Assembly: GCA_910585235.1 (NCBI GenBank)
Contig: CAJUCM010000003.1
Span: forward strand, 15,649 to 79,648
DNA length: 64,000 nucleotides
Source: an uncultured Christensenella sp.
GTDB taxonomy: Bacteria; Bacillota; Clostridia; Christensenellales; Borkfalkiaceae
Direction of reading: 5' to 3'
Shown here piece after piece: positions 547 through 54,066 of the stretch (positions within the stretch are counted from its first letter, which is position 1; each line of letters opens with the position of its first letter). A model generated the notes under the pieces. The model was not told the DNA's origin. It worked only from the letters and a program-made list of their open reading frames with translations, and searched no databases. The position numbers and the translations under genes were made by a program.

Positions 547-1578
547 TTAATCGATATAAATATCTCTGATCGGACCGAGGGCGCGCATGGAACCGTCGGG
601 GATAATTTTATCGAACTTCCGCCTCATCTTCTTCGTGATCCCGAACACGTAGAAAAAGGGCAGAACGTCGTAAAAGTAATCGGGAAATTCCTCGACAAGC
701 GCTTCCAGCCTATTCTTATCGGCAACCGTTAAAAACCGCTTGAACGAACATACCTTTCCGTAGATTTGCAGATCCTCTTTTTTTCTGAAATCCGCCTTTT
801 CCGCAAACCAGCTGACCGTCAGAACGAGAACAAGGATAGCAACGCCGATCGAAATACGGAACAGCGTCGAAGACGGAACGATGAAGAGCGCCGCAAGCAA
901 CGGAACGCCGCCCCACACCGCCATAAACGGTACGCGCACGATCGCGGGCTCCGGCATAAACTTCATTAAAAACACGCCGATCACGGGAAAGAGCATAATG
1001 AGGGCGATCGGGGCTTCCGTGTGAAAGCTGATGAGAATACCGATAAAAAACGCAAGGACCGCCGCGCCGATTTTCATGGCGAGAGAAATGATCTTTCCCG
1101 TTTTTCCGATGACCGAGCGGGAGAGCTTCTTGCAATCGTTTATCGTTTCGTCGTAAGCCTTATCGACGGATTTCGTTGCGGCGAGCGTATAAAACTCGTC
1201 CTCTTTCCCGCGAAACATGGAGCTGAAAAGCGTGAGTTCGCAGTCATAGGTTTTCCGATTCGTCCTTCCGCTCTCTTCAAAGGGGAGCAACCACTTCTTT
1301 TTTGTGATTTTCAGTCCCCTGCCGTCCTCTTCGACGGTGATGAAACCCTGATCCGCCCAATACAGCAACAGCGGCGTAAAGAGCGCGTTCGCCTTTACCC
1401 GTCTTGCGGAATACACGAGCGCGGCGTCGATCGGGGAATATCCTTTGGGCGCAAAAAATTCCACGGGTTTGATGATGTTCTTTTTTCTGATATAGGAGAC
1501 GAGATCGACCCCGATGCAAAAGAGAAGAAAGATACCAGACAGGATCATGGATGTAAGAAAAATCCCGAATTCGCTCAT
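547..1578 (-). CDS. DUF2207-like polytopic membrane protein (short form)
   Basis: N-terminal TM helix, then PKGYSPIDAALVYS...LLLYWADQGFITVEE (resembles the DUF2207 cytoplasmic segment), then several C-terminal TM helices. Paralogous to the next gene. Confidence 0.55.
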   Translation of the reverse strand: MSEFGIFLTSMILSGIFLLFCIGVDLVSYIRKKNIIKPVEFFAPKGYSPIDAALVYSARRVKANALFTPLLLYWADQGFITVEEDGRGLKITKKKWLLPFEESGRTNRKTYDCELTLFSSMFRGKEDEFYTLAATKSVDKAYDETINDCKKLSRSVIGKTGKIISLAMKIGAAVLAFFIGILISFHTEAPIALIMLFPVIGVFLMKFMPEPAIVRVPFMAVWGGVPLLAALFIVPSSTLFRISIGVAILVLVLTVSWFAEKADFRKKEDLQIYGKVCSFKRFLTVADKNRLEALVEEFPDYFYDVLPFFYVFGITKKMRRKFDKIIPDGSMRALGPIRDIYID

Positions 1579-2624
1579 AACAGCGCCCCCCTTTCACCGC
1601 GGTACCATTCGGGCAATTGCTCGCTGCGGAATTTCGGTTTAAGAACCTGGGCGCAGCCAATCGTATAGAGGAAAGGAAGGAGCTCGTAATAGCGCTCCGG
1701 ATCGACCGCTTTTTTATTGCAAAAGAAGAGATAATTCCTGAAATTAAAGAGATCGGAATATTCTTTGAGATTCTCCTTTTCCCGATAGTCGGCAAAGAGG
1801 ATAAAGATAAACGTGCCGAGCGCGTAAAAGATAAGCGCCGCAAGCCCGAAATACCACGGATCGTAAGCGACCTGCTGAAAATAAGTCGTCACGATCGCAA
1901 TATAGGGAAGCCCGCCCCATAGCGAGAAAAAGGGATAGCGGATCGCGGGCGGGATCACGATCACATATTTGAGCGCCAGCACCCCGATGACCGAAAAAAT
2001 CGAAAGAGCGATAAACAATGCCTCGCCCGTATCGTAAGTCGCCCAGGCGACCGCCATAAAGTACGGGACAAAACAGAGGATCTGCGTTACGATTTTCAGA
2101 ATAAAGTGTCCCGCTCCGAACACCCCTTCGTTTTCGCCGATCGAAAAACTCTTATTTACCGATTCGGCGGATTTGCGCGTGATGAGCGGGGCGTTGATGT
2201 TAATATCCCTGTACCCGCTCTTAATATCTCTTCCGGAATAGTTTTTCATGTTGTCGCGCGCGAAAATATAGTTAAAAATTTCCCGTTCCCGAACGTAAGT
2301 CCCGCGGTCGTAAAATTCCGCCTCTTTGTGCGGGGGCATCTCTTTGAGCTTCCTTACGCGCACGGTATTCTTCGCGCGTCCCTCGATCTCGATATAGCCC
2401 CTCTGCGCCCACCAAACGAGGAGCGCGCGGGTGAGCGCCTGCGGGCGCGTCTTGCCTTTCATGACGCGCTGATAGTCGAGCGGGGAAAACCCCTTGGGAA
2501 GTTCGTTCACAAACTTCTTTTTTACATGGAATAACGCGCGGCAACCGAACGCGACGTCAAAGACGAGCACCGTCCCGATACAGCCGAACGCAATCGCCGC
2601 GGCGATCACATAAAAAACGTTCAT
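1575..2624 (-). CDS. DUF2207-like polytopic membrane protein, tandem paralogue
   Basis: Start moved to the internal ATG (MNVFYVIAAAIAF...), because the upstream part of the track ORF overlaps galM in another frame. Carries PKGFSPLDYQRV...LLVWWAQRGYIEIEG. Overlaps the downstream paralogue by 4 nt. Confidence 0.55.
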   Translation of the reverse strand: MNVFYVIAAAIAFGCIGTVLVFDVAFGCRALFHVKKKFVNELPKGFSPLDYQRVMKGKTRPQALTRALLVWWAQRGYIEIEGRAKNTVRVRKLKEMPPHKEAEFYDRGTYVREREIFNYIFARDNMKNYSGRDIKSGYRDININAPLITRKSAESVNKSFSIGENEGVFGAGHFILKIVTQILCFVPYFMAVAWATYDTGEALFIALSIFSVIGVLALKYVIVIPPAIRYPFFSLWGGLPYIAIVTTYFQQVAYDPWYFGLAALIFYALGTFIFILFADYREKENLKEYSDLFNFRNYLFFCNKKAVDPERYYELLPFLYTIGCAQVLKPKFRSEQLPEWYRGERGALL

Positions 2625-2641
2625 TGTTTTACCCGATAAGA

Positions 2642-3679
2642 TTATTTTGCAGTAAAGCGGTAGGCGGCGTGAAAGCGATACTCTTCCCCCGCTCCGAGAA
2701 TGGAGCTTCCCTTTTCGGCATACTCCGGCACGTTCACGTTGTTGGGGATCGCCTGCGTTTCCAAGCAGAATCCTCCCCGTTTTACATACGTTCCGCTCTT
2801 TCCCTTTTGCGAAAGCCCGTTGCCCGCATAGAACTGCACGGCGGGCATATCGGTAAAGCACTCCATCACGATCCCCGTTACGGGACTTTTGACTTCCGCA
2901 TACTTTACATATTCCCCGCACTTGTTTTTGAGAACGTGGCAGTGGTCGTAACCGTTCCCCTGTTTCAGATCGGTGTCGTCCGCGTCAATATCTTTTCCGA
3001 TCTCCTTGGGCGTATTGAAATCGAACGCCGTCCCTTTGACTGCGCGGTATCCGCCCTCCGGAATCATGGTGGGAGAAGTGGGCGTAATAAAGTCGCAGTC
3101 GATCTGCATGAGATGATTCAGAACGTCTCCGTTGCCCTCTCCGTTCAGATTGAAGTAAGCGTGATTGGTGAGATTCACGCAGGTCTTTTTATCGCTCATC
3201 GCGCGATACTCGATTTTCCATTCCCCGTTCCTGAACGAATAGACGACTTCCACGTTGAGATTTCCGGGGTAGTTCTCCTCCATATCGGGAGAGAGCAATT
3301 GCAATTTCAGCCGATCTCCCTCGATCGAAGCGTTCCAGATTTTTTTATTAAAGCCGATCTTTCCGCCGTGCAGATGATTGCCCCTGTCGTTGAGATAGAG
3401 ATTGTATTCCTTGCCGTCGATCACGAGCTTCCCCTTGCCGATCCGGTTGCCGAATCTGCCGATGAGCGCGCCGAGATAACCTCCGTTGTTTTCGTATTCC
3501 GAAACGGTTTGATAGCCGAGGATCACGTCCGTAAGATTGCCGTTTTTGTCGGGAATTAGAATCTGCTGAACGATCCCCCCTAAATCGAGTACCGTCATGG
3601 AGCTTTGTCCATCGTGCAGGGTATATGCGGTGACGGTTTTTCCGTCCGCGGTTTTTCCGAACTGTTTTGCAGTGATCAT
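2642..3679 (-). CDS. galM: aldose 1-epimerase (galactose mutarotase)
   Basis: GRFGNRI, NHLHGG, NLTNHAYFNL and FCLETQ motifs typical of the aldose epimerase family. Start set at MITAKQFGK. Confidence 0.9.
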   Translation of the reverse strand: MITAKQFGKTADGKTVTAYTLHDGQSSMTVLDLGGIVQQILIPDKNGNLTDVILGYQTVSEYENNGGYLGALIGRFGNRIGKGKLVIDGKEYNLYLNDRGNHLHGGKIGFNKKIWNASIEGDRLKLQLLSPDMEENYPGNLNVEVVYSFRNGEWKIEYRAMSDKKTCVNLTNHAYFNLNGEGNGDVLNHLMQIDCDFITPTSPTMIPEGGYRAVKGTAFDFNTPKEIGKDIDADDTDLKQGNGYDHCHVLKNKCGEYVKYAEVKSPVTGIVMECFTDMPAVQFYAGNGLSQKGKSGTYVKRGGFCLETQAIPNNVNVPEYAEKGSSILGAGEEYRFHAAYRFTAK

Positions 3680-3791: not shown

Positions 3792-4472
3792 ATGCAGAAA
3801 CGCTTTATTCCGGTCGCGTTATTCTTTGTTGTGCTACTCATGATCCTTGCGCACTTTACGGGCAGAGCGCTCGCCGTTCCCGCATCCTTTACCTATGCGG
3901 AGGAAAAATGCGTCTATCTCACGTTCGACGACGGTCCCAGCAATTCGGTCACGACCCCCATTCTCGACACGCTCAAAAAGGAGGGCGTCAAAGCGACTTT
4001 CTTTGTCGTGAGCGACCGCGCCCACGGAAGAGAGGACGTTCTGAAAAGAATCGCAAACGAGGGACACACGATCGGCGTGCATTCCGCAACGCATAAGTAT
4101 TCCGAGATCTATGCCTCGGAAAAATCGCTTTTGAAAGACATCGATACCTGCGCCGCCTTTATTAAAAAGACGGCGGGCGTTACGCCGAGCGTCTACCGTT
4201 TTCCGGGCGGAATGTCAAAAAGCGACAGTCGGCGGGAGGTCGTGAAAGCGCACGGCTACCGCATTATCGACTGGAACGCCGTCTGCGGAGACGAAGAGAT
4301 CAGAAACGCGAGCACGGAAACGCTAGTAAAAACTTCGCTCGAAACGGCAAAGGGCAAGGCAAAAGTCGTGCTTTTACTGCACGACTCCGCCACGCACAAG
4401 GCGACCGCCCAAGCCCTTCCCGAAATCATTTCAGAATTCAGAAAACAGGGCTATACGTTCCGCGCCTATTGA
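3792..4472 (+). CDS. polysaccharide deacetylase (NodB/CE4 domain), membrane-anchored or secreted
   Basis: N-terminal hydrophobic signal or anchor. Carries VYLTFDDGPS and HTIGVHSATH NodB motifs. Confidence 0.85.
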   Translation: MQKRFIPVALFFVVLLMILAHFTGRALAVPASFTYAEEKCVYLTFDDGPSNSVTTPILDTLKKEGVKATFFVVSDRAHGREDVLKRIANEGHTIGVHSATHKYSEIYASEKSLLKDIDTCAAFIKKTAGVTPSVYRFPGGMSKSDSRREVVKAHGYRIIDWNAVCGDEEIRNASTETLVKTSLETAKGKAKVVLLLHDSATHKATAQALPEIISEFRKQGYTFRAY

Positions 4473-7186
4473 CCTACTTTCAAAGAATGCTTTTTTGCGC
4501 GACCACGTCTTTTTACGGGGCGCGCTTTTTGTTTGCGCGCCTTTGAAATTGCGCAGACCGCCATATCCACAACCGCGCCGATCGGCACAATACTCAGCGA
4601 CAACCCCATGACGGCGAGCCACTGCACGGCGTTGAGCGAAGTAAGCCCGAAGATCAGCCTGAGCGGCGGGCATACGACGAGAAGAACGTTGACGAGAATC
4701 CCCGCCGCCACCGTGAGAAGAAGGGTCCTGTTCGAGAAGAACTTTTTGAAACGGTTCCCACCCCCGTCCCGCCTGACGTTGAACGCATGGAAGAGTTCGA
4801 GAAGCGACAGCGTTACGAACGCCGCCGTGCTCGCAACGCCGTTCCCCCATTCGCGGAGCGCGAACACGAAGAGCCCGACGACGATCGCCGTCTGCACAAG
4901 CCCGTAGAACGCCATTTCGAGAAGGGACTTTTTGGAGAATATTTCCTTTTCCGAAACGGGCGGTCGGAGCATGGCGTTTTCCGTGCGCTCCACGCCGAGG
5001 GCGAGAACGGGCAGAGAATCGGTGATCAGATTCACGAACAGAAGCTGCGTTGAAGTGAGAAATTCGTACTTCCACAAAAAGAGCGAGACGATCAGAACCG
5101 CCAGCACTTCCGCAAGGTTCGTCGCAAGGAAGAACGAAATCGTCTTTTTGATATTGTAGAATACGTTCCGCCCCTCCTCGATCGCGTGCGTCATGGTCTT
5201 GAAGTCGTCGTCGGTGATAACCATGTCCGCGGCGTTCTTGGTGACGTCCGTCCCCGATCCCATGGCGACGCCGATGTCTGCCGTCTTGATCGAGGGCGCG
5301 TCGTTCACCCCGTCGCCCGTCATGGCGACGACTTCCCCGTGCGACTGCAACGCGCGGACGATCTCCGTCTTGTGCTTGGGCGATACGCGGGCATATACCG
5401 AATAGCCCTTGACGCGGCGGAAAAACTCCTCTTCCGTCATGGCGTCGATCCCGTCGCCCGTGATGACCTCTTTGGGATCGGAGGCGATCGAGAGGCGCTT
5501 TGCGATCGCAAACGCGCTCTCCGCGCTGTCGCCCGTGATCATGACCGTGCGCACACCCGCGCGCCTGCACGCCAGCACGGCTTCCTTTGCGCCCGCTTTG
5601 GGCGGATCGAGCATGGCGGCGAATCCCAAAAAGGTCAGATTCTCCTCGCGCACCTCGTGCAGGAACGCGCCCTCGGCAAACGCCAGAACGCGCATGGCTT
5701 TTGACGACGCCTCTCTGATTTTATTTTCGATCGCGGCGCGCGTTTTCCCGTCGAGCGGAACGATCCCCTCTTCCGTGAAAACTTTGTCGCACTTTTTGAG
5801 AAGAACGTCCGCGCCGCCCTTGACGTACAGGCGCGTTTTTCCGCCGTGTTCGGCGGCGACGCTCATCATCTTGCGTTCGGAGGAAAAGGCGATCCCGCCG
5901 ACCGCTCTCGCCTCGTATAAATATCCGCATTGATCCGCGTATTCCGAGAGCGCGATCTCGGTATGATCCCCCACGTAGCCGTCCGCACTCCTTTTCAGGG
6001 AATGACATACGCGGATACATTCCAAAAGACGGTTCTGCGCAGCGGTTCCCTCGTACTTTTCTTCCCCGTCCGAAGAAAAGCGGGTCGCGATCTCCTGCAC
6101 CGTCATTTTGTTTTCGGTCAGCGTTCCCGTCTTATCCGAACACACCACCGTACAGCCGCCGAGCGTTTCCACCGCGGAGAGCTTCCGCATGACGGCGCGC
6201 GACTTTGCCATACGCTGTACGCCCATGGCGAGGATAATGGTGACGACCGCGCCCATGCCCTCCGGGATCGCGGCGACCGCCACCGCGACCGCGTTCATCA
6301 CGTTCTGCAAAAAGCTCACTCTGTGCGAGAGGATCCCGCCCAGAAAGAGAATGAGCGCGACCGTAAGAACGCTGATCGAGATGATCTTTCCGAGCTTTAC
6401 GATCGTCTTATCCAAGGGGGTGGGCGCGAGCTTGCTCTTTTCGAGAAGATTCGCGATCTTGCCCATCTCCGTATCCATGCCCGTGGCGGTCACGACGCAC
6501 CGCGCCGATCCTTTGACGCAGAACGTGGAGAAATGCGCCGTGTTCTTCCGCTCCGCGAGCGCGGACTTCGTCACGACGCAGTCGCACTTTTTCACGGGCT
6601 TGCTCTCCCCCGTGAGCGCGGACTCGTCCGTGCGGAAATCGTCGCTTACGAGCACGCGGCAGTCGGCGGGGATCCTGTCCCCCTCTTCAACCTCGACGAT
6701 GTCCCCGACGACGATCTCTTCGGCGTTGAGAACGACGACTTTTCCGTCCCGCACCGCCTTTGCCTCGGTCACGGACATCTGTTTGAGTTTTTCGATCGCC
6801 GAGTCCGCACGGTTCTGCTGTAAAAACCCGACGAACGCGTTGAGGAGAATGATAAAGAGCAGAATGCCCGTGTCGGCAAGCTCGCTCTTATCCCCCGTTA
6901 CAAACGCCAGAACGCCCGAAAGAAACGCCGCCAAAACCAGTATGATCGTCATAAGGTCTTTGAACTGCGCAAAGAAAATGCCGAGCTTACTCTTCTTTTT
7001 GCCCTCTTTCAGCGCGTTCCTTCCGTTTTGTTCGAGGCGCCTTTTCGCCTCTTCGGAAGAAAGCCCCGCTTCGGACGTCAGAAAGGATTTCAGCACCTCT
7101 TCCTTTTTCAGAAGATACTGTCCGTTGTCCTTTTCGGCAGGTTCGGTCGGGGTAGCTTTTTTACGTTTCGATCCCTTTGTTCTCAT
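4466..7186 (-). CDS. P-type cation-transporting ATPase, Ca2+ (PMCA/SERCA-like) type
   Basis: CSDKTGTLTENKM phosphorylation site, TGDGVNDAPSIK hinge, TGES actuator motif and multiple TM helices. Start set at MRTKGSKRKK. The 3' end overlaps the convergent deacetylase gene by 7 nt. Confidence 0.9.
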   Translation of the reverse strand: MRTKGSKRKKATPTEPAEKDNGQYLLKKEEVLKSFLTSEAGLSSEEAKRRLEQNGRNALKEGKKKSKLGIFFAQFKDLMTIILVLAAFLSGVLAFVTGDKSELADTGILLFIILLNAFVGFLQQNRADSAIEKLKQMSVTEAKAVRDGKVVVLNAEEIVVGDIVEVEEGDRIPADCRVLVSDDFRTDESALTGESKPVKKCDCVVTKSALAERKNTAHFSTFCVKGSARCVVTATGMDTEMGKIANLLEKSKLAPTPLDKTIVKLGKIISISVLTVALILFLGGILSHRVSFLQNVMNAVAVAVAAIPEGMGAVVTIILAMGVQRMAKSRAVMRKLSAVETLGGCTVVCSDKTGTLTENKMTVQEIATRFSSDGEEKYEGTAAQNRLLECIRVCHSLKRSADGYVGDHTEIALSEYADQCGYLYEARAVGGIAFSSERKMMSVAAEHGGKTRLYVKGGADVLLKKCDKVFTEEGIVPLDGKTRAAIENKIREASSKAMRVLAFAEGAFLHEVREENLTFLGFAAMLDPPKAGAKEAVLACRRAGVRTVMITGDSAESAFAIAKRLSIASDPKEVITGDGIDAMTEEEFFRRVKGYSVYARVSPKHKTEIVRALQSHGEVVAMTGDGVNDAPSIKTADIGVAMGSGTDVTKNAADMVITDDDFKTMTHAIEEGRNVFYNIKKTISFFLATNLAEVLAVLIVSLFLWKYEFLTSTQLLFVNLITDSLPVLALGVERTENAMLRPPVSEKEIFSKKSLLEMAFYGLVQTAIVVGLFVFALREWGNGVASTAAFVTLSLLELFHAFNVRRDGGGNRFKKFFSNRTLLLTVAAGILVNVLLVVCPPLRLIFGLTSLNAVQWLAVMGLSLSIVPIGAVVDMAVCAISKARKQKARPVKRRGRAKKHSLKVGQ

Positions 7187-7275
7187 ACGGTTACAATATG
7201 ATTTTCGGGACAAGATTATGACAGATACAAAAACGCCCGTATGCCGATTGCATACGGGCGTCATTGAAAGCGATT

Positions 7276-9873
7276 TTATTTTTCGATTGTTTGTACGCTC
7301 GCGCCGGCTTCGCGGAGCTGGTTTGCAAAACTTATAGCTCTCTCTTCGTCAAACCCTTGCGCGATCACGCCGCTTTTTTCCGCCAGCTTTTTCGCTGCGT
7401 CGAGACTGTTATGCAAATACTGACGGATAATTCTAATCACTGCAATTTTATTGTTTCCGCAATTCAACAGTTCAACGCCGAACGACGTGCCGCTTGCGGT
7501 CTTCTTTTTGTTCTTCGCTTTTTTCGCGGGAGCGGGATCCGCCGTATATGCCGCTTCACGGTAAGCGGCGAAATCGATTTCAAGAAGATGATTGTCGTTG
7601 CCCGCGATAAAGTTTTCGTAATTGTCGAGCTTTTTCTGTTCCAAAAGCTGTTCGCGGTCGATCGCGTTCAGCGCTTTTTCGAGTTCGCTCTTCAAGGCTT
7701 TTTTCTGCGAATGAAGATCGTCTCTCTTACTTGTCGTTCTCGTTAGCATGGAATATGCCGCATTGTATTGATGGGACATACGACTGTTTTTATCGTTGGA
7801 AGCTCTGTATGCGATCGCCACAATGATTGCCAGCAAAATACTGAGCGCGACTCCGCCGAGAACCCCGTAAATTGCGGCTTGAATCACAACCAACGGGATT
7901 ACAGGCTCCTGACTGGGCCAAGCCCAAGTGATAAATTCTAATTCCAAAACTTCCGGCATATCGGTAAACATCCCGAAAGTAAGTCCGATCCAAGCCGCAA
8001 AAATCGCAATGATAAATAAAATACCCGAAACAATAACTCCCTTCATCGGAAAATATTTCTTCGGTTTTTCCCTGAACGTTTTCAGAATGGGATTGACTGC
8101 AAAGACGTGAGAAATTTCGGCGTTCGCCGCGTCGATCTCGCGGTCCTTTGCGGCGTCCAACGCTTGATACCGCTCTTTGCGGTTTCTGATTTTTGCCTCG
8201 CAATCGGCGATCTTATCCCTGCAAGCCTGCGCCTTTGGTTCAAACTTTTCGCAAATTTTTTGGCGCAATTCCGTAAGATGTTCGCGGAACTCGCCCTGCG
8301 CGTACTGATAGGCGTTCTGGAACGCGGGGCGGCGGACGGTCATTGCAACCGTATCGCAGTCGCACTTTTCCAAAAACTCCTCTTCCGAAGCGCACGCTTC
8401 GTCTCCGAGCAAAACGTTCCACCATGCCTTTGCGTTTTCGGGTTCGGAAGCGATCAAAAGACGGCTGACGGAATCCGAACGCTTAAAGTCTTTCTTCTGT
8501 AAAAATTTTTCCGCACGGGGCAGTAGCGTCTCTTCGGATTTCAGATCCTTTTCAAACTGCTCGATCTGTTCGACCGTCTTGCCCGTCGCATAGCGCTTTG
8601 CAGTGATATAATTGCGGTTGCGCCTGACCTGTTCAAAATCGTCCGCCGACTCGACGGTATTTTCCGCCCGCTTATCATCGACCGCGTTACGATCGACAAG
8701 GAACAGTCCCCACCAAGCGTCCGCGTTCTGCGGATCGGCGTCGAGAACGCGCCCGTAATAATCTTTTGCGTTGTCGAAGCTCTTGACTTCGAGCTCCTGT
8801 TTTGCGCGCATCAAAAGGCTCTTGACGGTCGCCGAAGCGCCGCCGCCCGCCGATTCCGCGCCGCCCTGCTGCAATCCTTTCAGGCGCTCTTCGAGTTCGC
8901 GCTGAGCTTGCTTCTGCGCTTCGATCTGTTTGAGGATCTCTTCCTCTTCCTTGCTTCTCTTCTTTCTTCCGAGTTTCTTTTCCACCGCGTCCGCGACGTG
9001 GATCTCATACCCGCCCGCGGCGTACCTGCGCAGATCGATCCCCTGCGTGCGGGCGAACGGAGGAAGATTTCTCACTTCCGCGCCGTCGAACACGGCGCAG
9101 GCGACGCCGCTGAGGCGTTCCGTCTCCATACGTTCTTCAAAACGCGACCACTCGTTCTTGACCCAGGGCGCGTTGATAAATTCCTCTTTGGTGCCGACGA
9201 GAATAAAGAACTTACAGCTGAACAGCGCGCGGAAGATGATCGGCTCGAACGCGGAAAAGAGCTTTCCTTCGAGAGTCACGTCCGAGAAAAACGTCTTGAT
9301 CCCGCGCTTGGTAAGTTCGTCGTAGATAATGCGGGCGATCTGCGCGTCGCGCGTGATCCTGCCCATTTCGTCGGTGGACTTGAACGAAATAAATACGTCG
9401 TAATCCTCTTCCGCGTCGGAAAGTTTTAATATCTCTCTCTGCAAGCGGTCGATCTCCGTCGCCTCTTTGATATATTCCGCTCTCTGAACCTCGCTCGCGC
9501 ACTCGATCGCTTTGAGATAGTCCTCGTTCTCCAAAATGCTCTCGCGCACCGCGCGGTGACAGGTGGGCGTATAGCGGTTGGTTCTGGGGTCTTTTACGAA
9601 ATCGATTCCGTAAAGACTGATCACAAGTCCCCAGTGCGCCTCCGCATCGTCGGGATTCTGCTCGATGATCAGTCTGTATTCCATGATCGCGTCGGAAAAG
9701 CGGTTCGCCCGCCGCAAAGCGTTCGCGCGGTCAAGCTCGGATATGACCTTTTCCGTTTTTTCCTCTTTCCAATATTCGATATGATTGCAATACTCGCACG
9801 ACAGCGTGATCCCGTCCGCGCCGAATTTGAGTTCCGCGCCGCAACAGGGGCATTTCATTGTCACTCTTCCCAT
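7276..9873 (-). CDS. Zn-ribbon / TPR-like / TIR domain protein with a 2-TM hairpin and a C-terminal ribosomal L7/L12-CTD-like domain
   Basis: CPCCG...CEYCN zinc ribbon. Three AxWG/AWW helical repeats. TIR-type block YDVFISFKSTD...GIKTFFSD...KFFILVGTKEEFINAPWVKNEWSRF (about nt 9019-9402). Two TM helices (about nt 7807-8061). The last ~69 aa, FGVELLNCGNNKIAVIRIIRQYLHNSLDAAKKLAEKSGVIAQGFDEERAISFANQLREAGASVQTIEK, align along their length with the L7/L12 C-terminal domain. Confidence 0.8.
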   Translation of the reverse strand: MGRVTMKCPCCGAELKFGADGITLSCEYCNHIEYWKEEKTEKVISELDRANALRRANRFSDAIMEYRLIIEQNPDDAEAHWGLVISLYGIDFVKDPRTNRYTPTCHRAVRESILENEDYLKAIECASEVQRAEYIKEATEIDRLQREILKLSDAEEDYDVFISFKSTDEMGRITRDAQIARIIYDELTKRGIKTFFSDVTLEGKLFSAFEPIIFRALFSCKFFILVGTKEEFINAPWVKNEWSRFEERMETERLSGVACAVFDGAEVRNLPPFARTQGIDLRRYAAGGYEIHVADAVEKKLGRKKRSKEEEEILKQIEAQKQAQRELEERLKGLQQGGAESAGGGASATVKSLLMRAKQELEVKSFDNAKDYYGRVLDADPQNADAWWGLFLVDRNAVDDKRAENTVESADDFEQVRRNRNYITAKRYATGKTVEQIEQFEKDLKSEETLLPRAEKFLQKKDFKRSDSVSRLLIASEPENAKAWWNVLLGDEACASEEEFLEKCDCDTVAMTVRRPAFQNAYQYAQGEFREHLTELRQKICEKFEPKAQACRDKIADCEAKIRNRKERYQALDAAKDREIDAANAEISHVFAVNPILKTFREKPKKYFPMKGVIVSGILFIIAIFAAWIGLTFGMFTDMPEVLELEFITWAWPSQEPVIPLVVIQAAIYGVLGGVALSILLAIIVAIAYRASNDKNSRMSHQYNAAYSMLTRTTSKRDDLHSQKKALKSELEKALNAIDREQLLEQKKLDNYENFIAGNDNHLLEIDFAAYREAAYTADPAPAKKAKNKKKTASGTSFGVELLNCGNNKIAVIRIIRQYLHNSLDAAKKLAEKSGVIAQGFDEERAISFANQLREAGASVQTIEK

Positions 9874-9929
9874 AGTTCTCTCCCGTTTTTCTTATGCCGT
9901 TTTTTCAGCCGTTATCACAGTTACGTTTT

Positions 9930-9959
9930 ATTATAACACAATTCTATCACAATCCGCAA
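9930..9959 (-). promoter_or_regulatory. sigma-A type promoter for the TIR gene
   Basis: Minus strand reads TTGCGG-18 nt-TATAAT with an extended -10 (TGT TATAAT), about 55 nt upstream of the GGGAGAG SD and ATG. Confidence 0.5.
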
Positions 9960-10039
9960 GTAGTCTCCATGAAATAATTCTGTAATTAACAAAAAAATCC
10001 GCCCTCTTGCGATAAGTTAGGGAGCGTATTCTAAAAGAA

Positions 10040-10140
10040 ACGGCGTGTCGGGGACGCCACGCCCTACGGTTTGTTCGCATATAACGCACACGCCCGTTGC
10101 CCTGCTTTGCTTTGTAGGGCACGACGACGCGGCGTGCCGC
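10040..10140 (-). repeat. GC-rich palindromic extragenic element, copy B
   Basis: Same termini as 464-544 with a longer, divergent centre. Helix 10053-10067/10114-10128 keeps the same three C.A positions (G.U on the minus strand). Confidence 0.6.
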
Positions 10141-10194
10141 ATTATATGCCGCCCCGCTTGGCGTTGCGCCAAGCGGGGCAAAAAAACTTATTTT

Positions 10195-10392
10195 CTATTT
10201 ACAGCCCGAACAGGTCTTGCAGTTTCCGCTGCAATGCGGGGCGGACTTCCCCGTAGCCGAATAAACTTTTCCCGACCACTCGCGCTCCGCCCTCTTTCCG
10301 CAGTCGGGGCAAAGCACCTCTTCGTTGCAATTTTTGACAAGTTCCTCGAACTCTTTCCGGCAGGATAAGCACCTGTACTGTAAAACGGGCAT
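10195..10392 (-). CDS. FmdB-family zinc-ribbon protein
   Basis: 65 aa: YRCLSCRKEF...CPDCG, plus a Cys-rich tail (CSGNCKTCSGC). Starts 2 nt after the corA stop. Confidence 0.75.
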   Translation of the reverse strand: MPVLQYRCLSCRKEFEELVKNCNEEVLCPDCGKRAEREWSGKVYSATGKSAPHCSGNCKTCSGCK

Positions 10393-43960: not shown

Positions 43961-45679
43961 TTAAAATTCGCTATCATCCATGGCTTCCGCATCGTACCTG
44001 CGGTACATTTCGCGGTACGTCTCCATGTCGGAATAGAGCGCGCGGAGCATTTCCATGTATTTGATCCTGTCCTCGGCAAGCTGTGCGTCCGCACGGAGAA
44101 GCGCCTTGTAGTTGCAGTATTTGACGCGCACGCCGAGCCCCGCAAGCACAAGCCCCGCGACGACGCACACGGCGAGCAGAACGATATTCCACGGGTTAGG
44201 GATATATGCGGACAGGAAATTGCACACGATCCCCGCGGCGACGAGGATCGCGCCGAAGATAACCAACAGATAAAAATTCGTATCTTTGATCGCGGCTTTG
44301 GTTCTTTGGCAACGGTCGGTAAGAAATTTTTCGACGTTCTCTTCGTCCCCGTCCGCGTTATCGAGCGCCGTCTTTGCGGAGTATTCCCCGATATGCACGG
44401 AGAGTTTTTCGGCATACTTGCTCCTGTAAGACTTCACATATTCGCGGTAGGCGCGCCGATAGCTCGCTCTGAATTTTTCATAGGAAAACGCGGCGATCTC
44501 TTTTTTGCCCGCAAAGCGTTCGCTCTCCGTCAGCCATTTGAAGAGACATTCCTCCACGTCGAGATCGGAAACGAGCCTGACGTCCTCTTTGACTTTGAGT
44601 TCCATAGCGTCCTCCAAAACGCCCTTCGCCTCGATGATTTTCTCCTGATAGGAAATTTTATCCCTGATCTCGTCCGACTTGGGAGAACGGCAGTATTCCA
44701 CGGCTTCGTCGAGCATATCCGAATAGAACTGCGCGCGCGCCCCGTCGGAACTTCCGCCGACCAGTTTGCGAAGATACGCGGCGACCGCCCCGTTGTTCAT
44801 GGCGCCGAAGAGCGCCCCGTCGAGCGACGCGCACTCTTCGACGTGCTGTTCGATATACTTGAATTTCGGCGGACGCGTCTTCATGACCTCCACATACCCG
44901 GCGGAAATTTTAGAGACGAACGGCGTTTTGTCGCCGTCGGAGATGTTATCGATCCCAAGATAGGCGCGGAGCTTTTCCGCGCCCCGATCCCGATCGCAGA
45001 GCGCAATGACCGCCAAAAGACGCGAAAATTTCTCCTCGCTGCCGACGAGCGGAACCGCCACAAGACGGTCGATCCAGTAATTCTTTTCCGCCTCGTCGCC
45101 GCGGCGGAGCGCGATCAGAAAGTACACCCAACAGCTTCTGCGCTCGTCGAGCTTCAACGCCTCTTCGCGAGCGCGGTCGGCGGCTTCCGTCTCCCCGCGC
45201 TTGCGCAGTTGCAGATCCATCATGACGTGGCTTAAAAAGAAGTACTGCGTTTTCAGATACTGCTTTTCCGCCTGTTCCGCGATCGTCTCTTCCGAGGCAA
45301 GATTTTTCAGTTCGTTATCCACCATGGCGACGAGCATTTTACGCACGTTCTTTTCGCCGTCCTGATGATAGCGCAGTTCGTTTTTCAGTCCGCGGATGGT
45401 TTTATACGCGTTTTCCATGTTCTTGTAGCGTTCCATCATGCCGCGTATTTCGTCCTGCTTGCGGCTGACGCCGTGCAGGATCTCGTCGTCCGATCTGATC
45501 GTCTTGGCGCCCCCTTCCAGCGTTCCGATCGCGGCGTCCTTCATGGCGGCGACGTCGCGGTGCGCGGTGTTCACGGAGGAGACCATCATATTGATCTCGC
45601 TTTTCAGCTGAGCATTTTCGTTCCTGATCTGGTTGACTTTGCTCCGCATTGCATTGACGTCACTTTGCGTAACACTCAT
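43961..45679 (-). CDS. coiled-coil / helical-core / C-terminal 2-TM hairpin protein, paralogue 3 (572 aa)
   Basis: N-terminal heptad-rich ~110 aa. Core YFFLSHVMMDL...RRSCWVYFLIALRRGDEAEKNYW aligns with the other two paralogues. Two TM helices (LLVIFGAILVAAGIVCNFL, IVLLAVCVVAGLVLAGLGV) plus a ~60-aa helical tail. SD GGAGGT, ATGA overlap with the AAA+ gene. Confidence 0.75.
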   Translation of the reverse strand: MSVTQSDVNAMRSKVNQIRNENAQLKSEINMMVSSVNTAHRDVAAMKDAAIGTLEGGAKTIRSDDEILHGVSRKQDEIRGMMERYKNMENAYKTIRGLKNELRYHQDGEKNVRKMLVAMVDNELKNLASEETIAEQAEKQYLKTQYFFLSHVMMDLQLRKRGETEAADRAREEALKLDERRSCWVYFLIALRRGDEAEKNYWIDRLVAVPLVGSEEKFSRLLAVIALCDRDRGAEKLRAYLGIDNISDGDKTPFVSKISAGYVEVMKTRPPKFKYIEQHVEECASLDGALFGAMNNGAVAAYLRKLVGGSSDGARAQFYSDMLDEAVEYCRSPKSDEIRDKISYQEKIIEAKGVLEDAMELKVKEDVRLVSDLDVEECLFKWLTESERFAGKKEIAAFSYEKFRASYRRAYREYVKSYRSKYAEKLSVHIGEYSAKTALDNADGDEENVEKFLTDRCQRTKAAIKDTNFYLLVIFGAILVAAGIVCNFLSAYIPNPWNIVLLAVCVVAGLVLAGLGVRVKYCNYKALLRADAQLAEDRIKYMEMLRALYSDMETYREMYRRYDAEAMDDSEF

Positions 45680-47163
45680 TTTTTACCTCCGTTCCCCGAC
45701 GCGGGGACCGCGCTCGTACTGCCCCATTCGCGCAACTCCCCGATCAGTTCTTTTTTCGTGGCAAGCATGCTCACCGTCTGTTTGAACGCCGCGGCAAGCT
45801 CCTCGAACGAACCCGTTTTTCCGCTCATGTATTCCTCTTCCGCAACGCTCTTGACCGCGGCTTCGATGTCCGCATAGGAGAACCCCTCGGACAGTGCGAC
45901 GAGCCGCTCCGTCTGTTCTTGGTTCAGCGGGAAAGAGAGGCAGAGTTCCGCATACAGCCCGATCGCGCTCGCGCGCTCCTCCCCGTCGGGCAGATCGACG
46001 AAAAAGGTCTCGTTGAATCTTCCCTTGCGGAAGAGTTCGGGCGGAAGTTTGGAAATATCGTTTGCCGTAGCAACGAGGAACACCCGATCCGAATTTTCCT
46101 GCAACCAAAAGAGAAGTCCGCCTAAGATACGCTTCGTCGTATCGTTGTCGCCTCCGCTGTAAAGCTCCTTTTCGATCTCGTCGATCCAGACGACGCAGGG
46201 ACTTACACTGCCGATATAGTCGAGCGAGAGCCTGAGATTTTTTTCGCTTTCGCCCACGTATTTATCGAACAGCGCGCCGATGTCGAAGCGGTACAGCGGC
46301 AAACGCCACCTGTCCGCAATGAGCTTTGCGGAGAGCGATTTTCCGCAACCGGGAACGCCGACCATGAGGATCCCGCGCGGAGGACTGATGTATTTTTTGT
46401 CGAGCGCGTCCTTGGGCGCAAAGAAAATTTTCTCTTTCCGCGCCAGCCACCTCTTGACCCCGTCGAGCCCCGCAACGTGCACGTCCCCTACGTCCACGCG
46501 GGAAACGGCGGCGTTCTTGCCGAACAGCTTATCTTTCTGCATTGCGACCGCGCACAGATTTTCGTAGGTGAACCCGCCCGAAAGTTTATAGGCGTAATTC
46601 ATGACGATATTCAACTGCAAAGCGGTGTAGCCCGAAAGCACCGTGGCGGTCTGGGGGATTTTGCTCTTATCAAGCGTTTTGATCTTATGATGGGCGATAA
46701 ATCCCGCAATCTGCTTTTCGCGCTCCTTCTGCGTCGGCAGATCGAGTTTGATAAACATTCCGAGTCTTCCCAAGCCCCGCCATACGGGATCGGACGTGAC
46801 GACGACGATCGAACTTTTTCTGTCGGAGGCAAGCCTCACGAGCGCGGACATCTTTCTGGAAAACGAATTGTCCGTATCCAGATAGCGCACGTCGCCGAGC
46901 GCAAAGCACTGCCCGCTCTTCTTTTTCAGCTTCTCCTCGATATAGACGAGCGGTTCGCGCGATTCCGCGCTCCTCTCCTCCCGTCTCAGCTCGATAAAGC
47001 CGTCGGTATCGGTATAAAATTCCAGTTCACTGCCGAGCTCTTCCGCCGCGTCTTTGAGCGCCGAACGCGCCCTGTCCCGTTCCGCCGTCATCAGCACGAC
47101 GAGCGGGGTTCGCGCCGCGATACAGGCGGTAAGCTCTTTCACTGTCTGCAAATAATTACTCAT
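45676..47163 (-). CDS. classical-clade AAA+ ATPase (COG0464 / Ycf46-like), N-terminal ~230 aa without Walker motifs
   Basis: Walker A GVPGCGKS, Walker B VVWIDEIE, VGESEKNLR, and second region of homology ATANDISKLPPELFRKGRFNETFFVDLP. Confidence 0.88.
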   Translation of the reverse strand: MSNYLQTVKELTACIAARTPLVVLMTAERDRARSALKDAAEELGSELEFYTDTDGFIELRREERSAESREPLVYIEEKLKKKSGQCFALGDVRYLDTDNSFSRKMSALVRLASDRKSSIVVVTSDPVWRGLGRLGMFIKLDLPTQKEREKQIAGFIAHHKIKTLDKSKIPQTATVLSGYTALQLNIVMNYAYKLSGGFTYENLCAVAMQKDKLFGKNAAVSRVDVGDVHVAGLDGVKRWLARKEKIFFAPKDALDKKYISPPRGILMVGVPGCGKSLSAKLIADRWRLPLYRFDIGALFDKYVGESEKNLRLSLDYIGSVSPCVVWIDEIEKELYSGGDNDTTKRILGGLLFWLQENSDRVFLVATANDISKLPPELFRKGRFNETFFVDLPDGEERASAIGLYAELCLSFPLNQEQTERLVALSEGFSYADIEAAVKSVAEEEYMSGKTGSFEELAAAFKQTVSMLATKKELIGELREWGSTSAVPASGNGGKK

Positions 47164-47169
47164 AATTCA

Positions 47170-47607
47170 CTATGCCGTTTTTTTAAGCCCCGCCGCGCTT
47201 TCCAGCGCGGAGAGATGATATACAATGTCTGCGTTTTCGTTCTCGACGGAAATTTCGATCTTGCCGACGAAATCCCCGACCAGCGTGCGGATATATTCCT
47301 CGATCCTGTCCGCGTCCGCCTTTCGGATAAAGCCGAGCTCTCTGAAAAAATACATGTTCGCGACGGTATCCGTGAGAACTTCGAGCCTGTAAAGACTTTC
47401 GACAAGTTCGTCCGTTCCCTCTTCAAACAGGGCGAGTGACGCTTTGAGATTGCGCTCCACGCATTCGCCGATCAGCGCGATCAGCGAGGCATAGTCGCAT
47501 TTTTTCAACTTGCCCCGTTTGAGATATTCCGCTTTCTCGCCCGTGAGCCTGCCCGAAAGCGCCTCTTCCCACTGCTCCGCCTTAGAGGGTCCCTTCTTCC
47601 GCCTCAT
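47170..47607 (-). CDS. hypothetical 145-aa helical protein
   Basis: Basic N-terminus, then predicted helices (LIALIGECVERNLKASLALFEEG...VANMYFFRELGFI). SD AAGGA. Packed 4 nt after the preceding small ORF. Confidence 0.6.
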   Translation of the reverse strand: MRRKKGPSKAEQWEEALSGRLTGEKAEYLKRGKLKKCDYASLIALIGECVERNLKASLALFEEGTDELVESLYRLEVLTDTVANMYFFRELGFIRKADADRIEEYIRTLVGDFVGKIEISVENENADIVYHLSALESAAGLKKTA

Positions 47608-47611
47608 GATC

Positions 47612-47779
47612 TCAGTCCTTATATTTTGCGGGAGGCATGATGCTCCACTTGGGGAGTTTCTTTTTCAGCTCGTTGAGCTGTTCCGTGGAGAGCACGTTCG
47701 CGCCCTCTTCGCCGATAAACATCGAGAAATCGAACTCCTCTTTTTCCCTGTTCTTTTCCGTATTTTCGTTTTCCGTCAT
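47612..47779 (-). CDS. unlisted 55-aa ORF (MTENENTEKNREKEEFDFSMFIGEEGANVLSTEQLNELKKKLPKWSIMPPAKYKD)
   Basis: Hand-translated. AAGGAG lies 10 nt upstream. It fills the only gap in the operon (23 nt after the upstream gene, 4 nt before the downstream gene). Below the ORF-track cut-off. Confidence 0.5.
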   Translation of the reverse strand: MTENENTEKNREKEEFDFSMFIGEEGANVLSTEQLNELKKKLPKWSIMPPAKYKD

Positions 47780-47802
47780 TTCCTCAATTCTCCTTACCTG
47801 TA

Positions 47803-51234: not shown

Positions 51235-51244
51235 ATCCTCTCCT

Positions 51245-53962: not shown

Positions 53963-54037
53963 CTACAACCCCTCGCCGTTTTGAAACCGTTGCGGGACGG
54001 TTCAATTACTTTTTTCCGTTGCTATACATTATGTTAC

Positions 54038-54066
54038 AGTTTAACATTTTTGTCGAAAAATGTCAA
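54038..54066 (-). promoter_or_regulatory. candidate promoter of the seven-gene operon
   Basis: Minus strand reads TTGACA-17 nt-TAAACT, about 70 nt upstream of the SD GAGGGG and ATG at 53962. Confidence 0.45.

Follow-up and report, generated by a model that had tools for sequence, protein, structure and literature searches.

We identified, in an uncultured Clostridia bacterium of the mouse gut, a predicted membrane-anchored TIR protein that ends in the head of the ribosomal stalk protein bL12 (L7/L12), and found that these two domains are joined in at least seven architectures. The protein (P0001, 865 aa, from the ORF list and its translation) consists of a Zn-ribbon, a TPR region, the TIR domain, a TPR/helical region, a hairpin of two transmembrane (TM) segments, a long helix, a hinge rich in Lys, Pro and Ala, and the bL12 C-terminal domain (CTD). 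Its features are listed in Table 1, with positions in the window, i.e., the whole stretch of 64,000 nucleotides that was analysed. The several gains of a bL12 head by related TIR proteins suggest that this family is linked to the machinery of translation.

Table 1. Features of the gene coding for P0001 and of its surroundings (positions in the window; aa, residues of P0001).
Feature	Position	Strand	Evidence
Whole gene (P0001)	7276..9873	-	Orthologues 62-65% identical at full length; cluster representative 99%, near-identical
Promoter-like region: TGGAGA, 17 nt spacer, TG-n-TAGAAT (extended -10), then second TATAAT box	9929..9969	-	Consensus scan and sequence reading; pattern match only
Shine-Dalgarno GGGAGAG, ending 4 nt ahead of the ATG at 9873	9878..9884	-	Sequence reading
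Zn-ribbon, aa 6-34 (C8, C11, C26, C29)	9772..9858	-	Cys conservation; three short strands in AF2
TPR-like helices and conserved beta-hairpin P103-T-C-x-R107, aa 41-153	9415..9753	-	Pfam TPR_14/16; AF2 pLDDT ~90; invariant columns
TIR domain, aa 156-301	8971..9408	-	Pfam TIR_2; Foldseek
W237-V-K-N-E241-W242, WxxxE motif with putative catalytic Glu	9148..9165	-	Invariant in 38 relatives; RUN1/RPV1 alignment
Helical linker and two more TPR-like units (AWWG, AWWN), aa 302-606	8056..8970	-	Pfam TPR_19 at aa 362-410; AF2 helix 308-334
Two-TM hairpin with basic flanks and acidic loop, aa 607-693	7795..8055	-	Hydropathy scan; topology inferred
Long post-membrane helix and short helices, aa 694-778	7540..7794	-	AF2 helix, model residues 2-67, pLDDT ~90-96
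Flexible hinge rich in Lys/Pro/Ala, aa 779-797	7483..7539	-	AF2 pLDDT <50 at model residues 93-103; composition
bL12 (L7/L12) C-terminal domain, aa 798-865	7279..7482	-	Pfam PF00542; PDB phmmer; Foldseek
Intrinsic terminator: 13-bp stem, 8 GC pairs, T-run; 14 nt past the stop codon	7232..7262	-	Sequence analysis
2,977-bp segment with terminator, gene, promoter and palindromic elements; 62 bp instead in the sister species G004	7224..10200		Comparison with G004:C3

The gene and its product

A preliminary description of this DNA, made from its letters, had given the gene an extended -10 promoter of its own. The signals agree with this: the motif lies at 9969-9941 (a pattern match only), with a ribosome-binding site at 9884-9878 and a terminator at 7262-7232. 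The same description had named a TIR domain and an L7/L12 CTD in the product, and regarded a failure of profile searches as grounds for giving up either homology. Such a failure did not occur, both domains scoring above their Pfam cut-offs and being matched at the level of the fold.

The four Cys of the Zn-ribbon are invariant in eight L12-bearing relatives. Among 38 relatives C8, C26 and C29 are invariant and C11 is at least 90% conserved, and among 68 relatives all four are at least 90% conserved. For the coiled coils that had been read from the translation, AF2 gives long helices; in the C-terminal part of the protein, helix 691-756 is followed by a low-confidence hinge near 782-792. The hydropathy scan placed the TM segments at aa 607-639 and 657-693. 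By the positive-inside rule P0001 would be anchored in the membrane with its N- and C-terminus both in the cytoplasm. A TLR-like topology was rejected, because the two TM helices bring the tail back into the cytoplasm. No SLATT-type 2-TM domain was recognised, as Pfam SLATT had no match in P0001 up to E=1 and only a weak match to DUF2207_C (16 bits) was found. Orthologues are 87-89% identical in the N-terminal module versus only 39-40% in the last 176 aa, hence the head of the protein is conserved and its tail evolves fast.

The TIR domain

Pfam TIR_2 (PF13676) matched aa 160-283 with 34.8 bits (cut-off 28), and the model of the domain is flavodoxin-like (AF2 pLDDT 88). Foldseek, the use of which had been suggested earlier, gave a probability of 1.0 to L7, Roq1, L6, AbTir (TM-target 0.74) and the TIR of SARM1. 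The glutamate of the WVKNEW motif is intact, as originally described: in an alignment with the TIR of RUN1/RPV1, E241 falls on the Glu of WCLDEL, which is the position of the catalytic Glu of RUN1. The motif from W237 to W242 is invariant among 38 relatives, and E241 is at least 90% conserved among 68.

Thoeris ThsB and TIR-STING are examples of enzymatic TIRs in bacterial defence. P0001 shares with the enzymatic TIRs of plants (RUN1, L6, L7, Roq1), of Acinetobacter (AbTir) and of SARM1 the flavodoxin-like fold, the YDVFISF strand and the helix Glu of WxxxE, but differs from them by its Zn-ribbon/TPR head and its 2-TM hairpin. It also lacks the NTPase, STING, SAVED, APAZ or ThsA partner of defence TIRs. 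The models of Thoeris, TIR-STING CBASS, SPARTA, retron-TIR and Avs-TIR did not match P0001, and their partner genes are absent at the locus. Among the known anti-phage systems, PADLOC gave only a weak match to PDC-S66 (18.7 bits, in the TIR region), and NCBIfam Retron_TIR scored 34 bits with a cut-off of 600.

The C-terminal bL12 domain

The last ~69 aa had been likened to the L7/L12 CTD, and all comparisons confirmed it. Pfam Ribosomal_L12 (PF00542) matched aa 798-861 with 38.4 bits (cut-off 25.9). AF2 gives the order beta-alpha-alpha-beta-alpha-beta with a pLDDT of 95-98, and Foldseek aligned this model to the E. coli L7/L12 CTD (1ctf) with a TM of 0.91, an rmsd of 1.0 Å and 34% identity. 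A phmmer search of the PDB matched 1dd3 (E 8e-6). The fold matches included the bL12 chain of PDB 8phj and, in a second tier, ClpS.

Both bL12 and the tail of P0001 have the helix-4 motif G-x-N-K-I-x-V-I-[KR]-x-x-R, and both place the domain behind a flexible Ala/Pro/Lys hinge. In P0001, however, the TGLGLKEAK loop has diverged and the head is fused to a membrane-anchored TIR protein. P0001 also lacks the N-terminal domain for dimerisation and uL10 binding, and therefore cannot be a stalk subunit. The profile of the stalk subunit (TIGR00855) matched it from the hinge on, at positions 43-123 only, with 28 bits for a cut-off of 84, and the true rplL of this genome (G000) is at C6:64832-65221. 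The G-V-[IL] loop of the CTD has the same short length as in the rplL of its genus.

In E. coli, the residues that dock factors are reportedly K65, V66, I69, K70, R73, L80, E82 and K84 (Kothe 2004, Helgstrand 2007, Diaconu 2005). The corresponding residues of P0001 are K, I, I, R, R, L, A and K, i.e., seven of the eight are kept or conservative and E82 is lost, although some of them may be conserved for structural reasons. An Ala stands at the position of E82 and an Asp at that of K81. The clade of P0001 retains the helix-4 motif and the equivalents of L80 and K84, most orthologues also having that of E82; the separate P0019 clade has lost K70 and R73.

We predicted the complex of the CTD with residues 1-300 of the EF-G of G000. 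The score was weak (0.43, with 0.02 for the best control) and may reflect memory of solved L12/EF-G complexes. At least 93% of the contacts agreed between runs, and the pLDDT of the partner was at least 85. The mark that this prediction passed was reached by 58 of 80 solved complexes and by 2 of 110 mismatched pairs; at scores of 0.60 or less it was reached by only 7 of these 80 solved complexes and by both mismatches.

Recurrence and origin of the fusions

The CTD is found behind the 2-TM hairpin in the P0001 clade and in the separate P0019 clade, and inserted past the TIR in P0121. The other layouts are TIR-CC-hinge-CTD-LRR (G006), TIR-CC-2xCTD (G031), TIR-3xCTD-LRR (P0189) and TIR-CC-ZnR-4xCTD (P0260). 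Many relatives have 2-8 tandem CTDs, some of them joined to a TIR. Arrays of bL12 CTDs were also found in proteins with dockerin, fn3 or LRV repeats, hence the domain can serve outside translation.

In both the tail of G006 and the rplL of the same genome, Pro replaces Gly and one residue is inserted (P-x-x-K-K-I), changes found in no other rplL sampled from the genus or the order. This points to a stalk head that was captured recently from the host itself. The argument for a host origin rests on such shared indels and not on the tree, because the tree of 92 CTDs (66 columns) does not resolve the backbone; the monophyly of the P0001 clade (98/94) is all that it supports, and acquisitions cannot be counted from it.

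On TIR/L12 fusions or on PF00542 outside ribosomal proteins, our search of the literature yielded a single study (Mizuno et al. 2019, Nat Commun 10:752, PMC6375957). The sections of that paper that deal with bL12-domain proteins of viruses describe domains 30-40% identical to the cellular ones, at varying positions in far larger non-ribosomal polypeptides. These domains were acquired repeatedly and independently, and retain the residues that contact factors and uL11. The proteins in these sections are encoded by phages and no TIR is reported there, whereas P0001 is a cellular membrane-anchored TIR protein.

The family and its genomic context

Judging from its sequence, P0001 is a member of a large, unstudied family of gut Clostridia with a shared ZnR/TPR/TIR head and interchangeable tails. 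Its N-terminal module (~450 aa) has 322 homologues at E≤1e-3, many of them 40-65% identical over the first half, and the family has 316 loci in species-representative genomes. Among its cultured carriers are Lachnospiraceae bacterium AC2029 and Diplocloster hominis CSJ-3. The tails are typical binding modules (RCC1, LRR, DUF6273, SPFH and lipoyl/HlyD), and the CTD is carried by only one of the 118 family ORFs in the species-representative sample. We found no publication on this SPFH-associated family.

An SPFH-Zn-ribbon gene adjoins the family gene, in the same direction, in 54 of the 78 loci, and 13 loci also have an IetA-like AAA+ ATPase and a trypsin-like protease. The ATPase matched IetA of PADLOC with 126 bits (E 6e-37) and carries Vps4_C and AAA_lid_3. 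The anti-phage system IetAS consists of an AAA+ ATPase and a serine protease and, to our knowledge, has no TIR or SPFH component; in the 13 related loci TIR genes are followed by the ATPase and then by the serine protease, which is not of the IetS type. Neither ATPase nor protease adjoins the gene of P0001. There is also no SPFH gene next to it, and the sole homologue in G000 is an SPFH-ZnR cassette on contig C7 without a TIR gene. The term stand-alone, used in the preliminary description, is thus correct for this solitary copy but not for the family, most of which is in such cassettes. The SPFH-associated proteins are homologous to P0001 in the N-terminal module and have variable tails (LRR, RCC1, DUF6273), most with TM segments past this module. 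In contrast, the tail of P0001 is a bL12 head that the two TM helices would place in the cytoplasm, and not an ectodomain.

The gene of P0001 is an accessory indel of ~3 kb with its own signals. In the sister species G004 (contig C3) both flanks match at 75-84% identity and the 2,977-bp segment is missing. The edges of the indel have neither flanking direct repeats nor another mobile-element signature. Within the genus, 9 of the 36 sampled species have any member of the family. The neighbours of the gene, a P-type ATPase and CorA, are housekeeping genes. Three metatranscriptome libraries, made in two studies, have contigs with the sequence of P0001, although carry-over of DNA is possible in them. 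In one of the studies the contigs end near 7293-7299 and 9894, and in RNA run X6 the ATPase gene is without cover. We did not take these ends for transcript ends, because the contigs come from a single study and absent cover proves nothing.

At a distance of 41 kb there is a seven-gene operon, the first gene of which had been described as paralogous to the N-terminus of P0001. This is the case: aa 6-245 are 31% identical to its 905-aa product (51245-53962, E 7e-20). The paralogy is restricted to the N-termini: neither the three 2-TM proteins of the operon nor the DUF2207_C proteins (547-2921) are significantly similar to the coiled-coil/2-TM region of P0001 (aa 470-800), with a best E of 0.2. 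The functional link proposed between the two loci has one supporting case in G031, where a TIR-2xL12CTD gene lies directly upstream of the homologue of the operon, but this gene is not an orthologue of that of P0001.

Proposed mechanism and alternative explanations

The bL12 CTD binds translational GTPases on the ribosome, which is among the best-defined binding roles in biology. We tentatively propose, at somewhat less than even confidence, that P0001 is an effector of the TIR type, in which the tethered stalk head at the C-terminus serves to dock stalk-binding proteins. The TIR would provide the output: its fold and the invariant Glu of WxxxE suggest an enzyme of the RUN1/AbTir/SARM1 type that consumes NAD once it has assembled, although a conserved Glu is no proof of NADase activity. 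The tail would be the input or specificity module: a bL12 head from a host-type rplL, on a Lys/Pro/Ala tether behind the 2-TM hairpin. Because the helix-4 surface with which bL12 docks translational GTPases (K-I-x-V-I-[KR]-x-x-R) is preserved in it, this tail would most likely be a tethered docking site or bait, either for EF-G, EF-Tu, IF2 or RF3 of the host or for foreign stalk-binding proteins. Docking would make TIR activity depend on the presence or state of the partner during conflict or stress, a response in which the SPFH, AAA+ and protease genes at another site of the genome possibly take part. The earlier suggestion that P0001 reads out or targets the translation machinery is plausible, and is strengthened by the independent recurrence of the fusions, the conservation of helix 4 and the origin of one tail from a host rplL. 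Against docking count the Ala and Asp of P0001 at E82 and K81, the changes at K70 and R73 in the P0019 clade, the rarity of the CTD in the family, the housekeeping flanks, the lack of a PADLOC match beyond 18.7 bits and the CTD arrays outside translation.

The tail might instead be a mere small, well-folding adaptor or spacer with a ClpS-like fold, used for assembly or autoinhibition in a protein that is a structural or regulatory part of membrane maintenance (with the SPFH scaffold, the Vps4-like AAA+ ATPase and the protease) and has no link to translation or immunity. This is a serious possibility, if somewhat unlikely. It fits the co-directional SPFH-Zn-ribbon genes, the Vps4_C and AAA_lid_3 of the cassette ATPase and the published ties of SPFH/YdjI-PspA to membrane stress (PMC10936438), as well as the bL12-CTD copies alongside dockerin, fn3 and LRR domains, the match to ClpS and the housekeeping neighbours. 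However, the invariant putative catalytic Glu and the WxxxE motif would argue for an enzyme, the helix-4 motif was retained despite the divergence of the remaining tail, and the tail of G006 retains a host-specific indel of rplL. The patchy distribution in the genus and the absence from the syntenic site of G004 are unlike those of a maintenance gene. A fortuitous or decaying accretion of domains without function would agree with the fast evolution of the tail and with the rarity of the CTD in the family. We disfavour it as very improbable, since the frame stays open in full-length orthologues, which also retain hairpin, hinge and CTD, the CTD is modelled with high pLDDT and the fusion arises independently again and again. 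The gene is moreover equipped with a promoter, an RBS and a terminator of its own, and its sequence is found in RNA libraries.

The protein could also be aimed at translation itself, if its assembled tethered heads were a membrane-bound, multi-copy mimic of the stalk that sequesters translational GTPases or recruits them to the TIR, so that protein synthesis stops. We hold such an effector to be quite improbable. No TIR is known to modify proteins, the contacts of bL12 with factors are weak and transient, and P0001 has one CTD per chain and no equivalent of E82. The ribosomal stalk, which works via 4-8 flexible bL12 heads (PMC10931766), is nonetheless itself multi-copy, as are the tandem CTDs of many relatives. 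The likeness of the P0001 hinge to that of bL12 and the weak docking prediction with EF-G, possibly a memory of solved complexes, also speak for this effector.

Another reading, which we consider clearly unlikely, is that of an integrated decoy. Gut Clostridia would have TIR immune proteins that repeatedly capture the stalk head of their own host and display it as tethered bait; when a stalk-attacking protein of an invader binds, the TIR would assemble and destroy NAD, and the infection would be aborted. Candidate invader proteins would be a phage translation factor, a partner of a phage bL12-domain protein or a stalk-docking toxin. The integrated decoys of plant NLRs, where a copy of the host target is built into the immune receptor as bait, are an analogy only. 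Cami1 (PDB 8phj), a stalk-captured CARF-RelE effector, is likewise an analogy only; the bL12 head is a known docking site for a non-GTPase immune effector. The receptor parts of NLRs and Cami1 are not homologous to P0001, and the binding of an invader protein to its tail is hypothetical.

Implications

TIR proteins are enzymes with a central role in the immunity of bacteria, plants and animals. In P0001 the likely input module is a domain with a very well-defined role, the docking of translational GTPases, which makes the question of TIR input directly testable with purified parts. The case is also a way into the unexplained and much larger class of bL12-domain proteins that bacteria and phages have outside the ribosome. 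If true, the decoy reading would make these proteins guards of the translation apparatus, with the same logic as the integrated decoys of plant NLRs. The repeated and independent joining of TIR domains with host-derived stalk heads suggests a general, so far undescribed link between TIR signalling and translation.

Domains and folds of P0001

P0001, the product of the gene under study, joins a zinc-ribbon, TPR and TIR head to a two-TM hairpin, a hinge and a C-terminal domain (CTD) like that of the ribosomal stalk protein bL12 (L7/L12, gene rplL). Pfam profiles matched TIR_2 at aa 160-283 (34.8 bits, cut-off 28), Ribosomal_L12 at aa 798-861 (38.4 bits, cut-off 25.9) and several TPR models. The AF2 model of aa 1-335, made with a 38-sequence alignment, had a pLDDT of 88, and Foldseek matched it to the TIRs of plant L7, Roq1 and L6, to AbTir and to the SARM1 TIR, all with probability 1.0. 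In the alignment, E241 of W-V-K-N-E-W fell on the WCLDEL Glu of RUN1 and RPV1, and all six residues of the motif were invariant in 38 diverse relatives. These results confirm the TIR domain with an intact glutamate proposed in the preliminary description.

A PDB sequence search retrieved Thermotoga L7/L12 (1dd3, E 8e-6), in an alignment that begins in the hinge. In the AF2 model of aa 690-865, a helix of 66 residues is followed by a hinge modelled with low confidence and then by a beta-alpha-alpha-beta-alpha-beta domain (pLDDT 95-98). This last domain superposes on the E. coli L7/L12 CTD (1ctf) with a TM of 0.91, an rmsd of 1.0 Å and 34% identity, ClpS being a second-tier fold match only. The proposed homology with the L7/L12 CTD thus holds, as do the hinge and the two TM helices before it, which a hydropathy scan placed at aa 607-639 and 657-693. 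The basic flanks and acidic loop of these segments predict that both ends of the protein should be cytoplasmic.

Gene structure and accessory status

The P0001 gene is solitary, flanked by a P-type ATPase and fmdB/corA. Its Shine-Dalgarno sequence (GGGAGAG) ends 4 nt 5' of the ATG, further upstream are an extended -10 match (TGGAGA/17 nt/TG-n-TAGAAT) and a second TATAAT box, and a terminator-like hairpin (13-bp GC-rich stem, T-run) begins 14 nt past the stop codon. The gene looks monocistronic with its own extended -10 promoter, in agreement with what had been claimed. The hairpin lies within the longest ORF of the downstream ATPase, so the real start of the latter is probably an internal ATG (MRTKGS...).

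Both flanks are 75-84% identical in G004, the genome of a sister species, where 62 bp stand in place of 2,977 bp, so the gene, promoter and terminator included, is an accessory indel. The sequence of the gene is present in mouse-gut metagenomes from many studies; three metatranscriptome libraries (two studies) have contigs that contain it.

Features in the window
Feature	Position	Strand	Remarks
DUF2207_C-type membrane protein gene	547-1578	-	E 7e-15; P0001 and the 593-aa protein of the distant operon match this model only weakly
DUF2207_C-type membrane protein gene	1575-2921	-	E 3e-8; adjoins the preceding gene
P-type ATPase, longest ORF	4466-7264	-	overlaps the terminator hairpin of the P0001 gene
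P-type ATPase, probable start	7186	-	ATG; point where homology with G004 is continuous
Segment absent from G004	7224-10200		2,977 bp
P0001 gene	7276-9873	-	open frame, 865 codons
Palindromic elements	10040-10179		within the segment absent from G004
Perfect 13-bp inverted repeat	10151-10179		among the palindromic elements
Distant operon	43961-54066		seven genes; first product 905 aa

A large TIR family with variable tails

The first ~450 aa of P0001 define a very large family: of the scored candidates, 322 matched at E<=1e-3. Species-representative genomes, from MAGs and isolates of Christensenellales-like bacteria, Oscillospiraceae, Ruminococcus and Lachnospiraceae, hold 316 loci. At least one TM segment follows the head in about 70-88% of the members. 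Their tails include RCC1 propellers, DUF6273, BspA-type and other LRRs, SPFH and lipoyl/HlyD-like domains, or nothing recognisable. Family genes often form tandem arrays of 2-4 paralogues; five loci from Lachnospiraceae, Oscillospiraceae and Christensenellales genomes (L052, L059, L070, L074 and L079) have three or four co-directional paralogues with differing tails.

In the genus to which the window belongs, family members turned up in 9 of 36 sampled species, with a maximum of 10 matches in one genome, and no full-length P0001 orthologue was found among the 36. P0001 orthologues are 87-89% identical in the head and just 39-40% in the last 176 aa. The window's own genome (1.75 Mb) encodes at least four further paralogues, including the first product of the distant AAA+ operon, 41 kb away. 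The claim that this operon and P0001 have paralogous N-termini is thus upheld, and the proposed functional link is suggestive only. In another sister species (G031, contig C6, L024:1-6000), a TIR-2xCTD gene and a gene for a Zn-ribbon-trypsin-like protease stand directly upstream of the operon's homologue (a 928-aa protein 44% identical to the 905-aa one, the next product 57% identical to the 593-aa one), yet this TIR is not orthologous: it is closest to another paralogue (60%) and 33% identical to P0001.

In 54 of 78 related loci, the TIR gene or genes have a co-directional SPFH (Band_7)-double-Zn-ribbon gene as neighbour. Thirteen related loci run from SPFH-ZnR through two unknown genes and one or two TIR genes to an AAA+ ATPase (AAA, AAA_lid_3 and Vps4_C domains; PADLOC IetA match, 126 bits) and a trypsin-like protease. 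The heads in these 13 loci are 41-54% identical to that of P0001, among the closest outside its own orthologues. In the second bL12-tailed lineage (P0019, locus L027, rabbit-gut MAG), the TIR-2TM-L12CTD gene is preceded by SPFH-ZnR and a 135-aa gene. Outside the window, the genome that encodes P0001 has the cassette typical of the family (contig C7:49331-54820), made up of SPFH-double Zn-ribbon, two unknown, AAA+ ATPase and trypsin-like protease genes, but the ATPase gene follows the unknown genes without a TIR gene in between.

bL12 CTDs outside the ribosome

Among 1.84 billion representatives, aa 786-865 of P0001 gave 231 matches. The top ones were not rplL products but long proteins that carry 2-8 bL12 CTDs in tandem; genuine bL12 proteins turned up only near E 1e-5. 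Two or more copies were carried by at least 134 of the 167 CTD-bearing proteins examined. The non-ribosomal proteins with 2-8 tandem CTDs form a large, phylogenetically broad class (P0123-P0271). One of Nannocystis pusilla (WP_346660302.1, 593 aa), with seven copies, is annotated as 'ribosomal protein L7/L12'. Some CTD arrays have unusual partners: three CTDs accompany a dynamin-family GTPase in P0249, a GTPase joined to a GTPase-docking domain, and a Ribosomal_L10 domain in P0205; the dockerin-bearing P0170, presumably extracellular, has two. In a genome of the same order (G045, contig C8, L025:2413-3366), a 317-aa multi-pass membrane protein without TIR ends in a bL12 CTD, and is predicted to be another membrane-tethered stalk head. 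Phage proteins with embedded bL12 domains, acquired repeatedly, are described in an earlier paper (Mizuno 2019, PMC6375957).

The repeated joining of TIR and bL12 CTD in differing layouts is new here. Every extra PF00542 copy in the genus sample is on a TIR-family protein.

Layouts joining TIR and bL12 CTD
Layout	Occurrence
CTD after 2-TM hairpin	P0001 clade and, separately, P0019
CTD inserted directly after TIR	P0121
TIR-coiled coil-Pro/Ala hinge-CTD-LRR	G006
TIR-coiled coil-2xCTD	G031
TIR-3xCTD-LRR	P0189
TIR-CC-ZnR-4xCTD	P0260

The CTD sequences are too short for a tree to resolve the number of joining events. In G006, the tail and the rplL product alike have Pro where Gly62 is expected and one inserted residue (P-x-x-K-K-I). 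Neither feature occurs in the 13 other sequences of the genus or in the rplL sequences sampled across the order, which argues that the host lineage's own rplL was the source of this tail. The G031 tails have TGLGLAEAKKAVES in common with the genus rplL, and the P0001 CTD has the short G-V-[IL] loop of the genus type.

Possible role of the bL12-like tail

The best-kept parts of the TIR-fused CTDs are the helix-4 motif G-x-N-K-I-x-V-I-K-x-[IV]-R and the helix-5 L-x-E-A-K; the TGLGL loop is not kept across them. P0001 has K, I, I, R, R, L, A and K at the positions of E. coli bL12 K65, V66, I69, K70, R73, L80, E82 and K84, which are reportedly the factor-docking residues (Kothe 2004, Helgstrand 2007 and Diaconu 2005). 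Complex prediction of the P0001 CTD with residues 1-300 of EF-G from the same genome scored 0.43 (best control 0.02), with at least 93% of contacts agreeing between runs and a partner pLDDT of at least 85. This supports docking only weakly. Of 80 solved complexes 58 reached the mark, as did 2 of 110 mismatches; at scores of 0.60 or under, just 7 of these 80 did so, together with both mismatches. The pass may reflect solved L12/EF-G complexes that the predictor had memorised.

The simplest mechanism, which we put forward tentatively, would have a tethered stalk head as the input module of P0001. The tail would dock the usual partners of bL12, be they translational GTPases of the host or stalk binders of foreign origin, and docking would control TIR assembly and NAD cleavage. 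Its main rival, in which the small bL12-like domain would serve merely as an adaptor for a membrane system of SPFH, AAA+ and protease with no relation to translation, is rather less likely; the bL12-CTD arrays that accompany dockerin, fn3 and LRV domains speak for such caution. Less likely than such an adaptor are a stalk-mimic effector that sequesters factors, which we regard as improbable, and a functionless accretion of the CTD, which we hardly credit. A head that is conserved and whose catalytic site is intact, tails that are interchangeable and of binding type, a patchy and expanded distribution, and the indel status of the P0001 gene are all in keeping with a TIR effector of the conflict or stress type, in which the tail sets the input.
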